From an uncultured Acetobacteraceae bacterium (GTDB lineage Bacteria; Pseudomonadota; Alphaproteobacteria; Acetobacterales; Acetobacteraceae): 64,000 nt of DNA. A program made the position numbers and the translations under genes. Positions 47,170-60,950 of the stretch are shown one piece after another; the stretch's first letter is position 1, and the number at the start of each line of letters is the position of its first letter. The notes under the pieces are model-generated. The model had not been told where the DNA came from and did no database searches. It saw only the letters and a program-made list of their open reading frames with translations. The stretch is taken from assembly GCA_964242595.1 (NCBI GenBank), contig CAXTBC010000005.1:14126-78125 (forward strand), written 5' to 3'.

Positions 47170-47982
47170 ATGATCCTGCAAAGCCTTTATGATGGTTGCT
47201 TCCAGCTCTACTTCGACGAGCTCCTGAGCCGGACACCGCTTTGGTTGTTCGTGCATGTGCCCAAGACAGCCGGCAGCTCGCTCAACGGGGAGCTGCAGCC
47301 CATCCTCAAGCCCGGCCACCATGTCTTTGTCGATTACACCCAGCTGGACCGGCGTTCTTTCGCCGATCTGCTGGACGAAGCCGTCGACAAGTTCATCACG
47401 CTCGCCCAGGTCCGGCGCTACCGCTACTGCACCGGCCACCTCGCGGCCCGGCACGTCGCGCGCATCGGCGCAGAGCTGCAGGACGTATGCCCGGTGACCT
47501 TGTTGCGTGACCCGGTCGCGAGGTTCGTGTCGGACTACCGCTACCAGTGTTCCGATATGCATCCCGGCCACGAGCAGTTCGTCGCGGACCATCCCGGCAT
47601 CGAAAGCTACCTCGACCTGCCGGGTGAGTGGAACAAGATAGCCGGCCACCTGGTGCCGGACCATTTGCGAGGGGATACACAGGCCTGTGTCGACCACGTC
47701 GCCGCCAGCTACGCTTTCGTCGGAATCCAGGAAGCTTACGCCCTGAGCCTGCGCCTTCTCACCACCCTGGTCGGTGCGCCCCGTCGCCCGGCGGTGTTCA
47801 GGCGCGTCAACACACCGGCGCCGGGATCGGAAATCCACCTGCCGCCTACGCTTGTCGAGAAGATACGCCTGCGCAACGCGCTTGACGTGGAGATCTACGA
47901 GGCGCTGAACGCACGCTTCCAGGCCGTTGCTCCTGCGCTGACGGCGTATCTGGACGAGGTGAACCCGCTGCCTCCCGAGTAG
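47170..47982 (+). CDS. Sulfotransferase (Sulfotransfer_2 type)
   Basis: FVHVPKTAGSSL, TLLRDPVARFVSDY, YAFVGIQE. Confidence 0.88.
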   Translation: MILQSLYDGCFQLYFDELLSRTPLWLFVHVPKTAGSSLNGELQPILKPGHHVFVDYTQLDRRSFADLLDEAVDKFITLAQVRRYRYCTGHLAARHVARIGAELQDVCPVTLLRDPVARFVSDYRYQCSDMHPGHEQFVADHPGIESYLDLPGEWNKIAGHLVPDHLRGDTQACVDHVAASYAFVGIQEAYALSLRLLTTLVGAPRRPAVFRRVNTPAPGSEIHLPPTLVEKIRLRNALDVEIYEALNARFQAVAPALTAYLDEVNPLPPE

Positions 47983-48117
47983 GACGCTGTTGACCTGTGA
48001 GTAAGAGTGCCTTTCGAAACCCGCCCTGGCGGCCATCTGACGCGCGTGTTCTGCGCTCCGGTGCTCAGAACACATGCCAGCTGACTCGCCATGCCGAATT
48101 TTGAAAGGCACTCCAAG

Positions 48118-48179
48118 GTCAGGGGCTCTGGGGCTCTAAGGCCCCAGCGGGTTTGGGGCAGAGCCCCATCCTTGCTTCC
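48118..48179. repeat. Family B repeat, half copy
   Basis: TGGGGCTCTAAGGCCCCAGCGGGTTTGGGGCAGAGCCCCATCCTTGCTT. Confidence 0.85.
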
Positions 48180-48200
48180 TAAAGGTCAGAACGTCGACCG

Positions 48201-57909: not shown

Positions 57910-59240
57910 TGCCGGACAGCATGGCCGTGCCAGGGGTCGGCCCCATCGCCATCGTCGCACACACCCATCCGTCCGTCAGTAAGGGCGGGGCCGAGATCGC
58001 CGCCTACGCGCTCTACGAGGGCCTGCGCACGATAGGCGTGGACGCCATCTTCATCGCGGTCTGCCCGTCCGCCGAGCGCAACCGCCTGATGCTCGGCTCG
58101 GACCGCGAGTTCGCCATCATCGCCGACCAGAACCGCTACGATCATTTCTACCACCTCTCGTCCGCCGACATCTGGCGCCAGCTCAAGGCGATCCTGCTGC
58201 GCCAGAACGTGCGGCAGGTGAACTTCCACCACTTCCTGCAGCTGGGCGTGAATACCTTGCGCGCCCTGCATGCCGAGACGGACATCCCCTTCACCGTCAC
58301 CCTGCACGAGTTCCTGGCCATCTGCGCCCATCACGGCCAGATGGTCACCCGGCCGGCCCGTCGCCTTTGCCCGGCCGCCTCGCCGGTCGCCTGCGCCACC
58401 TGCTTTCCCGAGCACAGCCGCCAGCAGTTCAGCACCCGCAAGCAGGTGATCCAGTCCGCGTTGCTGCCGGCCGCGGGCTTCATCTCGCCCAGCCACTTTC
58501 TCGCTGACCGGATGACCGAATGGGGCCTGCCGCGTGACAAGTTCGTGGTCATCGAGAACGGCCTGCGCATGCCCGGCAAGCCCGATGGGCGGGCCAGGCA
58601 GGCCGCCTCGTCTGGTCCTGCCCTGATCGGCAGCCGCCCGTGGACGTTCGGCTATTTCGGCCAGATCACCCCGTTCAAGGGTGCGGACATCCTGCTCGAC
58701 ACCATCGACCTGCTCGCCAAGCAGCCCGACATCGGCCACAAGATACGCATCCGTGTCCACGGCAACGTCATCGGCCAGGAGCCCGACTTCGTCAGCCGCT
58801 TTAACAGCGTGTTCGAGAAGAACGGCTTCGCCACCTACGCCGGGCCGTACGACAACGCGGACGTCCACAAGCTGATGCTGGGCTGCGACTACGTGCTGGT
58901 GCCGAGCACGTGGTGGGAGAACTCGCCCGTGGTGATCCAGGAGGCGTTCGCCGCCGGGCGGCCGGTGATCTGCACCGGCATCGGCGGCATGGCCGAAAAG
59001 GTGCCCAACCGTCTGGCCGGCCTGCATTTCCGCACCGCCGACCCCACCGACCTCGCGCGCGCGATGGGCGAGGCGGCCGACGAAACCCTCTACCAGGCGC
59101 TGTGCTCCGGGCTGCCGAAGGTCAGCGACCAGGTCACCATGGCGCGCGACTACCTGGCCAGCTTCAACCGCCTCATCAAGGCGCCGGGTTCCCAGGACGT
59201 GGTCCGCACGCCGCGTCGGCGGGCGCGGGCTGCTGTTTGA
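57909..59240 (+). CDS. Glycosyltransferase family 4
   Basis: GGAEIAA, TLHEFLAICAHHGQM, FGQITPFKG, PSTWWENSPVVIQEA, TGIGGMAEKV. Confidence 0.92.
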   Translation: MPDSMAVPGVGPIAIVAHTHPSVSKGGAEIAAYALYEGLRTIGVDAIFIAVCPSAERNRLMLGSDREFAIIADQNRYDHFYHLSSADIWRQLKAILLRQNVRQVNFHHFLQLGVNTLRALHAETDIPFTVTLHEFLAICAHHGQMVTRPARRLCPAASPVACATCFPEHSRQQFSTRKQVIQSALLPAAGFISPSHFLADRMTEWGLPRDKFVVIENGLRMPGKPDGRARQAASSGPALIGSRPWTFGYFGQITPFKGADILLDTIDLLAKQPDIGHKIRIRVHGNVIGQEPDFVSRFNSVFEKNGFATYAGPYDNADVHKLMLGCDYVLVPSTWWENSPVVIQEAFAAGRPVICTGIGGMAEKVPNRLAGLHFRTADPTDLARAMGEAADETLYQALCSGLPKVSDQVTMARDYLASFNRLIKAPGSQDVVRTPRRRARAAV

Positions 59241-59300
59241 AGACAAGGTTGGGGCTCTGCCCCAAGCCCCGCCTGGGCCGTAAGGCCCCAGACCCCCATT
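59241..59300. repeat. Family B repeat, half copy
   Basis: AGACAAGGTTGGGGCTCTGCCCCAAGCCCCGCCTGGGCCGTAAGGCCCCAGACCCCC. Confidence 0.85.
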
Positions 59301-59315
59301 CATGATAATCTTTCG

Positions 59316-60950
59316 ATGGCCATAAACCGGCCGCCGACGATCGGCTTGGTCGCTTGCGTGTATGCTCTCCTTGTTTGCCTGGTTTTGGCGCCCTTGTGGC
59401 TGGTGGGCACGCCCAGCCTGGGCGACTACCTCAACCACCTCGCCCGCATGCACGTTCTGGCCCAGGCCGGGCACTCTGCCGCGCTCGCGCGCTACTACCA
59501 GGTGCGCTGGGCGCCTATCCCGTACTTGGCCATGGATGCGATCGTGCCGCTGCTCAGCCGGATGGTGCCGATCTACGTTGCCGGCAAGCTGTTCCTCTCG
59601 GCCTGCGTGCTGCTGCCGCCGGCCGCGGTGGCCGTGCTGCATCGGACGGTCCACCGCCGAAACAGCCTGGTCCCGTGCGCCGCCTTCCTGCTCAGCTACA
59701 ACGGCCTGCTCTCGCTGGGCTTCCTGAACTTCCTGTTCTCCTCCGCGCTGGCGGTCATGCTGTTCGCGCTGTGGCTGCGGGTTGCAGGGTGGCCACCCCT
59801 GCTGCGCGTGGCGGGCTTCGCGCCGCTGGTCCTGCTGCTCTATCTCGGCCACGTCTTCGCCTGCCTGGCCTACTGCCTCGCCGTGGCCGGGCATGAACTA
59901 GCCGAGGCCTCTCGCGCCGGCTGGCGGCCCCTGCCGCGCGTGGCAGTCAACTTCGCCGCAGCCGCGGGGCAGGCTGTCCCGGCGGCGATCTTCGCGGCCA
60001 GGCTGGACGTCGGCGCGGGCTATGTCGGGCCCCTGCACACCGTCTTCGGCGGGGTGCCCGAGAAGCTCTACGCCTTCGCCTCGCCCCTGCTGTTCGTGCC
60101 CGACGGACCCGATGCCGCCTGTGCCGCCGGCGCGTTGCTGCTCGCGGCCGTGCTGCTGCGGCGGGTAAGGCTGGATGCAGCTGTCTGGCCCGCCTGCGCG
60201 CTGGTGGGCTTCGCCGGGCTGGCCGTGCCGCATCTGCTGGCCAGCACCTGGGGCACCGACCTGCGCCTGCCGTTCGTCGCCGCCATGCTTGGGCTGGGCG
60301 GCCTGTCGCCGCGCCAAGGGCGTGTCAGCCCGGCCGTGGCCGGGTTGGCCGCCGCGGTAACCTGCCTGCTGGTGGGCATCAAGTCCGCGGACGCGTGGCG
60401 CATGATGCGCCAGTCCAGCGCGCTGGTCGCCGAGACCCGGGCGGTGCTGGCCGGTCTGCCGGAAGGGGCGCGCCTGCTGGTCGTCAACGTGGCGCGCGGG
60501 ATAGCGGGACAGGGTGGCCCCCCGCCTGCCAGCCTGGGACCCAGCAGCGTCTGGCAGTTGCCGATGGTTGCTGTGATCGAGCACGACGCCTTCGTCCCGT
60601 ACTTCTTCAGCGGCTTGGCGACCGTGCACATCACTTCCGCCTGGCGAGCGGCCAGCACGCCGAACGGCTTCCCGGTCACCCTTGACCAGCTCCGCCAGGG
60701 CGTGCAGGCCACCGACATCCCCGGCCACGACCTGCCCGACGGCCCCGGCGGCGCCCGCCTCTACCAGCTCGGCTGGCCGGCCAAGTTCACCCACGTGCTG
60801 GTGCAACATTACGGCCTCGATGCAGGACCGCTTCCCGGCAACCTCATGGCCTGCGCGCACACCGCCGGCCTGGACCTCTATCGTGTGACCACGAGGCCGC
60901 CCACGATCGGGACGGAAAGCCTTCAACTGCCACCGTGCTCGTCCATATGA
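59316..60950 (+). CDS. Polytopic membrane protein, possible GT-C-fold glycosyltransferase
   Basis: About 10-12 hydrophobic segments; first loop GDYLNHLAR, PYLAMD, GFLNF; soluble C-terminal tail. Confidence 0.65.
   Translation: MAINRPPTIGLVACVYALLVCLVLAPLWLVGTPSLGDYLNHLARMHVLAQAGHSAALARYYQVRWAPIPYLAMDAIVPLLSRMVPIYVAGKLFLSACVLLPPAAVAVLHRTVHRRNSLVPCAAFLLSYNGLLSLGFLNFLFSSALAVMLFALWLRVAGWPPLLRVAGFAPLVLLLYLGHVFACLAYCLAVAGHELAEASRAGWRPLPRVAVNFAAAAGQAVPAAIFAARLDVGAGYVGPLHTVFGGVPEKLYAFASPLLFVPDGPDAACAAGALLLAAVLLRRVRLDAAVWPACALVGFAGLAVPHLLASTWGTDLRLPFVAAMLGLGGLSPRQGRVSPAVAGLAAAVTCLLVGIKSADAWRMMRQSSALVAETRAVLAGLPEGARLLVVNVARGIAGQGGPPPASLGPSSVWQLPMVAVIEHDAFVPYFFSGLATVHITSAWRAASTPNGFPVTLDQLRQGVQATDIPGHDLPDGPGGARLYQLGWPAKFTHVLVQHYGLDAGPLPGNLMACAHTAGLDLYRVTTRPPTIGTESLQLPPCSSI

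Follow-up and report, generated by a model that had tools for sequence, protein, structure and literature searches.

A probable sulfating glycan pathway built on a conserved glycosyltransferase core in uncultured Acetobacteraceae

Sulfated polysaccharides abound in animals and algae, but to our knowledge only a few bacterial gene sets for their synthesis are known. Rhizobial NodH and LpsS and mycobacterial Stf0 act in the cytoplasm, sulfating envelope or signal molecules that contain sugar, with 3'-phosphoadenosine 5'-phosphosulfate (PAPS) as the donor. Here, we examine a locus of an uncultured Acetobacteraceae bacterium that is probably a genuine, uncharacterised and likely sulfating glycan pathway, located at positions 47170-60950 of a 64,000-nucleotide stretch of DNA (assembly GCA_964242595.1, contig CAXTBC010000005.1, here C5; hereafter the window). 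A first-pass annotation of this block had described bacterial glycan sulfation as limited to NodH, LpsS and Stf0, a picture that is outdated, as clusters for sulfated exopolysaccharides and capsular polysaccharides have been published from Synechocystis (PMC8205485), Vibrio sp. KMM 8419 (PMC11641403) and Cobetia marina (PMC11766843), and this kind of system is therefore already known. The xss cluster of Synechocystis sp. PCC 6803 makes synechan, a sulfated exopolysaccharide, and carries its own Wzx, Wzy and polysaccharide co-polymerase (PCP) genes together with a regulator (PMC8205485). The Vibrio cluster holds cysDNC, nucleotide-sugar genes and an ATP-binding cassette (ABC) transporter (PMC11641403), and sulfated polysaccharide structures have been determined for both Vibrio sp. 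KMM 8419 (PMC11641403) and Cobetia marina KMM 1449 (PMC11766843).

When the block is compared to described systems, no match to a characterised locus is found in NCBIfam, PDB sequences or the literature searched, and that literature holds no paper tying Acetobacteraceae sulfotransferases to such a cluster. What is novel here is a giant protein combining glycosyltransferase (GT) domains of families GT2 and GT9, an unannotated protein family (E), a module common to several of the proteins, and the lineage. In our preferred reading, to which we give a probability of about one half on the strength of the gene sequences, three proteins (D, E and F) form a cytoplasmic glycan-building core, the product of which would be O-sulfated in strains that also carry the sulfotransferases C and A/B.

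At the high G+C content of the window (about 69%), long spurious open reading frames (ORFs) are common, and genes were therefore called by G+C at the third codon position (GC3). By this measure, there are seven genuine genes in the block, A to G, listed here with one spacer and one further sulfotransferase of the window:

47170-47982, plus strand: A, 270 aa, soluble; an accessory sulfotransferase from a divergent Sulfotransfer_2 / HS6ST-like family
48201-49019, minus strand: B, a 272-aa paralog of A, convergent with A and co-directional with C
49118-50302, minus strand: C, 394 aa, an N-terminal beta-sandwich module followed by a Sulfotransfer_3 domain; divergent from D
50525-55408, plus strand: D, a 1627-aa soluble multi-domain glycosyltransferase with four modules, GT2-like, GT2 and GT9 domains
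55409-55767, no strand: the D-E spacer, 359 bp of AT-richer sequence with a palindrome
55768-57909, plus strand: E, 713 aa, soluble, from a family without annotation; three beta-sandwich domains, then an alpha/beta domain at the C-terminus
57909-59240, plus strand: F, a 443-aa GT4 glycosyltransferase (by Pfam), translationally coupled to E
59316-60950, plus strand: G, a 544-aa polytopic membrane protein of putative GT-C fold (ArnT/STT3/Aft-like in its predicted structure), doubtful as a member of the pathway
31302-31919, plus strand: fourth sulfotransferase of the window (Sulfotransfer_2, PF03567, 34.7 bits), outside the block

C and B are spaced by 98 bp, and C and D diverge across 222 bp. 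The stop codon of E and the start codon of F share one base (TGATG; a gap of -1), F and G are 75 bp apart, and the stop codon of G overlaps the start of msrB by 4 nt (ATGA). Because no transmembrane (TM) segment is predicted in A to F, we place these proteins in the cytoplasm, where PAPS is available. The three sulfotransferases originally counted in the block are all real, with the correction that the third is encoded on the minus strand as gene C; the plus-strand ORF taken for it (49070-50050) is a shadow frame, with a GC3 of 0.67 versus 0.93 for C.

The core is conserved as a unit. A search with an E profile yields 26 genome loci, all from Acetobacteraceae or Rhodospirillales metagenome-assembled genomes and several from lichen metagenome bins, in which D, E and F adjoin one another as far as the contigs reach. 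The site of the locus is often identical, between hisA-DUF4337 and msrB, and the adjacency of E and F is kept in six loci from distant genera in which E is only 30-38% identical. Sulfotransferase linkage was counted on the 17 distinct loci with enough upstream DNA: at least one sulfotransferase adjoins D in 13 of them, C in 12, the A/B pair in 5 and B alone in 1. In one of the six distant-genus loci (L043), a B-like sulfotransferase (43% identity) lies directly 3' of the E-F pair. Co-conservation of the genes, on which the initial proposal depended, is thus seen both in the D-E-F adjacency and in the sulfotransferases beside D, but the sulfotransferases are no obligate part, being absent next to D in 4/17 loci.

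Co-occurrence was assessed in 301 genomes of the family, representing 143 genera. E is present in 16 genomes (8 genera), and the A/B family in 11, nearly always as a pair. Eight of these 11 genomes also have E, against 0.58 expected (Fisher p 1.3e-9, phylogeny-uncorrected), while at the genus level A/B and E occur together in 5 of 6 genera (p 7e-7, likewise phylogeny-uncorrected); included are genomes in which these genes are unlinked and far apart. The sulfotransferases are an accessory layer, linked to a conserved D-E-F core.

Several relatives carry an ssuA-ssuD-ssuC-ssuB operon between F and G (L032, 13478-17292; L033, 13614-17351; L007 and L012, at about 13.8-17.6 kb), with SsuD scoring 592 bits (cut-off 518) and SsuA_fam 225 bits (cut-off 163.5). 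This alkanesulfonate-utilisation operon, which serves sulfur acquisition, is absent from the window; its position within the sulfotransferase locus of these relatives is counted in support of the preferred reading.

A and B share 40.5% identity over 262 aa (BLASTP, E 5e-69) and, as first described, are paralogs facing each other, although at 40% identity they cannot be called close. In an alignment of 13 A/B family sequences, including 11 homologs gathered from related loci, the PKTAGSS loop (PKTxGS) and the residues R113-P115-R118-S121 (RDPxxRxxS; RDPxxRxxSDY) are invariant. Twelve of the 13 members match Sulfotransfer_2 at E <= 0.01 (best E 6.5e-6), and the family profile matches the heparan sulfate 6-O-sulfotransferase 5t03, with both PAPS motifs and the C-terminal helix region aligned. 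On the basis of these invariant motifs and matches, we accept A and B as divergent carbohydrate-type sulfotransferases. Their 5'-phosphosulfate loop (PKTxGS/T), 3'-phosphate motif (RDPxxRxxS) and C-terminal helix region align with those of 5t03, the HS6ST and Sulfotransfer_2 proteins being the closest relatives of A and B, whereas the overall similarity is marginal (family profile E 1.9e-4).

C is matched by Sulfotransfer_3 (PF13469) at 51.7 bits, against a cut-off of 27, over profile positions 1-213 of 216, and carries the motifs PGRSGTT and RDPRDVLCS (RDPRDxxxS). The PAPS-binding motifs, that is the 5'-phosphosulfate loop and the 3'-phosphate motif, are intact in all of A, B and C. The C family comprises 170 homologs at E <= 0.001, the full-length members among the matches listed being about 390-460 aa. 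No common neighbours were recognised around C homologs in other genera (L035-L041); in lower-GC genomes, the GC3 gene caller overlooked genes. For the sulfotransferases of the block, NodH, LpsS and Stf0 gave no specific sequence match.

The 1627-aa protein D is the multi-GT it was taken to be, with a GT2 domain at residues 991-1210 (PF00535, 50.5 bits, above the Pfam cut-off) and a GT9 domain at residues 1351-1593 (PF01075, 94.6 bits versus a cut-off of 22). Its layout in nucleotide positions is an N-terminal region (50525-51040), four beta-sandwich modules (51041-52579), a divergent GT2-like region (52622-53479), GT2 (53492-54154) and GT9 (54338-55396). The region before the recognised GT2 is called GT2-like because residues 843-1265 of D align with a 956-aa protein from elsewhere in this genome (32% identity, E 1e-47). 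That protein (C31:9622-12492) has two copies of the beta-sandwich module and a double GT2, and its gene lies next to rmlB and rmlA-like genes, divergent from them.

The GT9 domain of D matches the PDB heptosyltransferases 3tov, 1psw and 2gt1 at E 3e-13 to 2e-9. Among the NCBIfam heptosyltransferase equivalogs, TIGR02195 aligns over its full length with 93 bits, and scores fall far under the cut-offs (134.6-185). The C-terminus of D thus resembles the lipopolysaccharide (LPS) heptosyltransferases WaaC, WaaF and WaaQ in having a GT9 domain that aligns over the full length, and differs from them in scoring below equivalog level and in being fused to GT2 domains and four modules. The genome has at least two GT9 domains and encodes hldE (ADP-heptose synthesis) on contig C52, and a search with TIGR00441 finds no gmhA in it; gmhA may be divergent or missing from the assembly, or else the GT9 domains may draw on a different donor. 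F is assigned by Glyco_trans_1_4 (PF13692, 63 bits) and Glycos_transf_1 (PF00534, 59.6 bits), both above the Pfam cut-off, and by Glyco_transf_4 (45.7 bits).

About 95 aa long and marked by GW, RxD and GF signatures, a module joins three proteins of the locus: C has one copy, at its N-terminus, D has four and E no fewer than two. The copy in C matches the D repeats at E 4e-5 in a model-independent sequence comparison, and the GW, RxD and GF residues of the module are the invariant positions of the E family. By a hidden Markov model (HMM) of the module, five further ORFs of the genome carry it. Matches weaker than those in the 956-aa double-GT2 protein lie at C23:37337, C24:12051, C6:16112 and C43:8146.

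E was correctly described as a protein of unrecognised family coupled to a GT4 gene. No relative is found in Pfam, NCBIfam or PDB sequences, whether E is searched as a single protein, in pieces (Pfam, E <= 5) or as a 54-member family profile, and the sole Pfam match among the 54 members is a D-E fusion. The family counts 117 clusters at 90% identity, all hypothetical or nameless, and at least 184 clusters at 50% identity (E <= 1e-30). What stays invariant across members at 20-36% identity is the set of GW, RxD and G positions in the three GW...RxD...GF beta-sandwich domains; the C-terminal alpha/beta domain has no invariant acidic residue. With residues conserved in this way, E does not look like an obvious enzyme, and we take it for a binding protein or adaptor. 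A catalytic domain was also sought and none was recognised: the hhalign comparison of the E C-terminus with the GT2 regions of D is not significant, library searches are empty, and whole-length hhalign of E against D gives nothing usable. The AlphaFold2 (AF2) model of E has a predicted local distance difference test score (pLDDT) of 57 and is confident for residues 20-130, 170-280 and 470-600 only. D and E are tied functionally by a natural GT2-GT9-E fusion, a Rosetta-stone link, in P0248 of the representative library (1848 aa, with the E part at residues 1325-1841).

The 544-aa protein G is polytopic, as first stated. No family match is obtained for it by sequence in Pfam, NCBIfam or PDB sequences. 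Its AF2 model (pLDDT 77, predicted template modelling score 0.81) gives Foldseek best matches by E-value that are nearly all GT-C proteins, led by ArnT 5f15 (probability 1.0, TM-score 0.46) and including STT3 and AftB (probability 0.98-1.0) and, lower, AftA; the first loop after TM1 has an invariant D37 and N40-H46 (NHLARMH). We therefore describe G, on its modelled structure, as having a putative GT-C membrane glycosyltransferase fold. It shares the overall predicted fold and the invariant Asp of the first loop with ArnT and other GT-C enzymes, and is set apart from them by moderate TM-scores, the want of a family match by sequence and a weak link to the cluster. The presence of the G family, in 75 of the 301 genomes, is not associated with that of E (p 0.18). 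Two genomes of the same genus retain D-E-F but have no G, and in several relatives ssuADCB stands between F and G. For these reasons, and given its coupling to msrB, G probably belongs to the msrB flank and not to the pathway, and its inclusion as a pathway member by the first-pass annotation is doubtful.

The neighbourhood of G has features of its own. Over 59316-61856, G is coupled to msrB, which is followed after 7 bp by a 153-aa GAF protein resembling free methionine-sulfoxide reductases, and the pairing of a GT-C protein with methionine-sulfoxide repair is conserved in L007, L009, L012, L018, L021 and L028. A second copy of G occurs in the same genome (C4:51111-52640, 30% identity), and tandem arrays of four G-like GT-C proteins occur in other Acetobacteraceae genera (G154:C3:1115434-1122343 and G210:C27:37272-43172).

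The fold of G bears on two alternatives. In the first, the locus would perform a periplasmic modification of LPS in the manner of ArnT: the GT2 of D would load a sugar onto undecaprenyl phosphate, G would transfer it to lipid A or core, and the other enzymes would decorate the core, as in the LpsS sulfation of rhizobia. The ArnT-like fold with its conserved first-loop Asp, the heptosyltransferase-like GT9 of D and the presence of hldE are all consistent with this, but D-E-F persists in two same-genus genomes without G, ssuADCB intervenes between F and G elsewhere, G is translationally coupled to msrB and gmhA goes undetected with TIGR00441. We judge this scheme highly unlikely.

In the second, the system would be directed at a protein. 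The immunoglobulin (Ig)-like modules would bind a surface protein (an adhesin or flagellin, for example), which D, E and F would glycosylate, or for which they would build a lipid-linked glycan that G transfers in the manner of an oligosaccharyltransferase; the sulfotransferases would modify the resulting glycoprotein. Foldseek matches of the E model are confined to weak ones with Ig-like beta-sandwich structures, secreted multi-repeat proteins also contain repeats that the E profile matches, the resemblance of G extends to STT3 besides ArnT, polysaccharide export genes are unlinked, and tyrosylprotein sulfotransferases fall within Sulfotransfer_3. Against these stand the lack of a candidate substrate gene conserved beside the cluster, the failure of G to co-vary with E, the affinity of A/B to carbohydrate sulfotransferases of the HS6ST, Sulfotransfer_2 type, and the LPS heptosyltransferases as the relatives of GT9. 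On balance, a protein target seems improbable.

Under the preferred reading of a glycan-building core, sulfation requires a donor and the product an outlet. The genome encodes cysD, a cysN-cysC fusion (APS kinase domain, 232.7 bits; APS, adenosine 5'-phosphosulfate) and cysQ as one operon on contig C12. The PAPS genes are thus located elsewhere in the genome, and their presence means that both PAPS synthesis and recycling of 3'-phosphoadenosine 5'-phosphate (PAP) are encoded. The earlier statement that the window lacks wzx, wzy, wzm or wzt, nucleotide-sugar and PAPS-synthesis genes stands: none is found among the ORFs scanned, which were all but a few short ones, and neither the block nor its flanks hold the export set or initiating transferase of a Wzx/Wzy- or ABC-transporter-dependent locus. 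The ABC2_membrane loci of the genome were considered as Wzm/Wzt candidates and set aside, as their gene maps show no clear glycan context. With export and ligation genes unlinked, LPS, capsule and S-layer glycan are indistinguishable from the sequence. Of the multi-enzyme sulfated LPS, capsule or S-layer glycan pathway first proposed, the multi-enzyme pathway is therefore retained, given the co-conservation, the PAPS motifs and the PAPS genes, whereas the type of glycoconjugate is undecidable from sequence and the sulfotransferases are accessory to the D-E-F core.

We infer that the acceptor is a glycan, that it becomes sulfated and that it is destined for the cell surface. D and F would attach sugars to a carrier-bound acceptor at the inner membrane face, with E as a substrate-holding or adaptor partner of both through its three ligand-binding beta-sandwich domains. 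The common module may gather sulfotransferase and transferases onto one substrate or complex, after which C, A and B would O-sulfate the chain with PAPS from the unlinked cysD-cysNC, and CysQ would clear the PAP by-product. Export and attachment would fall to machinery encoded elsewhere. We also put forward, tentatively and as a rather doubtful extension, that the E family and the GW...RxD...GF module represent a previously undescribed organisation of envelope-glycan synthesis. E, as a non-catalytic multi-module scaffold, would then hold a single growing carrier-linked chain together with the modules on D and C, so that polymerisation and sulfation are channelled, and perhaps length-measured, without the usual linked export or chain-length genes.

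Several points weigh against a sulfated product of the core. A and B miss the gathering cut-off of Sulfotransfer_2 (22 bits) with 20.0 and 20.8 bits, respectively, and Sulfotransfer_3 also contains protein-tyrosine sulfotransferases, so that the family name leaves the sugar acceptor of C unfixed. The four loci without an adjoining sulfotransferase imply that the core functions without linked sulfation. The C family, present in 26 genomes and 18 genera, has a weak association with E (p 0.04) and many carriers that lack E, and the co-occurrence statistics ignore phylogenetic kinship. In many bacteria, cysDNC also serves sulfate assimilation. The block contains no flippase, polymerase, ABC exporter, initiating phosphoglycosyl transferase or nucleotide-sugar gene, and the ABC2_membrane and Wzy_C matches in the genome are all on contigs other than that of the window. 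Finally, the carriers are all uncultured metagenome-assembled genomes, and the product is predicted from genes alone.

Some of these points equally suit an incidental linkage, in which D-E-F would make an unsulfated glycan (an LPS core extension or O-chain) and A, B and C would sulfate an unrelated lipid, metabolite or peptide from the same variable site. Besides the loci with no sulfotransferase by D and the wide spread of C without E, A/B is distant from E in some genomes, and the hisA-DUF4337/msrB site also takes unrelated ssuADCB, methyltransferase and LPG_synthase_TM genes. We nevertheless find this unlikely, as the module of C recurs in D and E, A/B and E co-occur far above chance even when unlinked, and E-F of a distant genus has a B-like gene as its immediate neighbour.

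Outside the block, the window contains a second glycan cluster (20-34 kb) of AsnB, GT4, GT9, two GT4, two unknowns, GT61, a sulfotransferase, GT61 and a methyltransferase. Two extra sulfotransferase-like genes had been reported at 27.7-31.9 kb, of which one holds up: the gene at 31302-31919, between the two GT61 genes, exceeds the Sulfotransfer_2 cut-off of 22 bits, has the motifs IHVPKTGGTS and REPLARIVSEY and is weakly matched by the A/B family HMM (E 5.7e-5). The other, at 27679-28740, is rejected, with a loose motif likeness only and no Pfam or NCBIfam match even at E 0.1. It is conserved-looking and has a DUF4214-like 'LGRPP' stretch resembling the N-terminus of D. Also conserved-looking in this cluster is 29054-30118, which has no family match and a signal-peptide-like N-terminus. 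The NusG at 19672-20202 was considered as a specialised paralog, a reading rejected since it is the sole NusG of the genome.

The block itself is flanked by housekeeping genes, namely hisB, DUF2628, hisH, a GNAT gene, hisA and DUF4337 on the left and msrB, a GAF protein, an EAL protein and secF on the right. T-rich hairpins lie directly 3' of the D stop in the D-E spacer, which also contains a perfect 9-bp inverted repeat, TGCACAATC-N5-GATTGTGCA, at 55628-55650 (one match in the window versus 0 in 100 shuffles), with no counterpart in the related loci compared. From its sequence, the spacer could possibly act as a terminator plus operator, or as a separate promoter/operator for E-F-G. At 44231-44390, in the gap that separates hisH from the DUF2628 gene, there is a strong hairpin or palindromic element, with sub-threshold Rfam matches on both strands. 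Nothing in an Rfam scan of 44-64 kb exceeds the threshold, and the sub-threshold matches are only to this hairpin at 44.2-44.4 kb.

The locus adds a co-conserved set from uncultured Acetobacteraceae, several genomes of which come from lichen or environmental metagenomes, to the described systems. It offers testable elements in a divergent carbohydrate-type A/B family, a large unannotated E family and a small module that one sulfotransferase has in common with two partners; through this module, modifying enzymes could be brought to the glycan as it grows. A sulfated surface polymer, if that is what is made, would matter for matrix formation and for the retention of water or ions where these bacteria live, and the enzymes would be new sulfotransferases for sulfated-glycan production.

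Of the described systems, the xss cluster likewise unites several glycosyltransferases and sulfotransferases, the latter from two different subfamilies, and its sulfation is presumed to be PAPS-dependent and to precede export, as we propose here (PMC8205485). The xss product has been chemically analysed and its cluster includes export genes, whereas this locus is read from genes alone and has none linked. This locus in turn differs from xss in its multi-domain GT2-GT9 protein, unannotated E family, common module and phylum. With the sulfated capsule clusters of Vibrio and Cobetia it shares the linkage of glycosyltransferases and sulfotransferases and a genome capable of making PAPS. Compared with the cluster as defined for Vibrio (PMC11641403), the sulfotransferases here are inside the cluster, but cysD-cysNC-cysQ is on C12, not C5, and the exporter is unlinked. 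NodH, LpsS and Stf0, for their part, are single enzymes, in contrast to the module-sharing multi-enzyme set of this locus.

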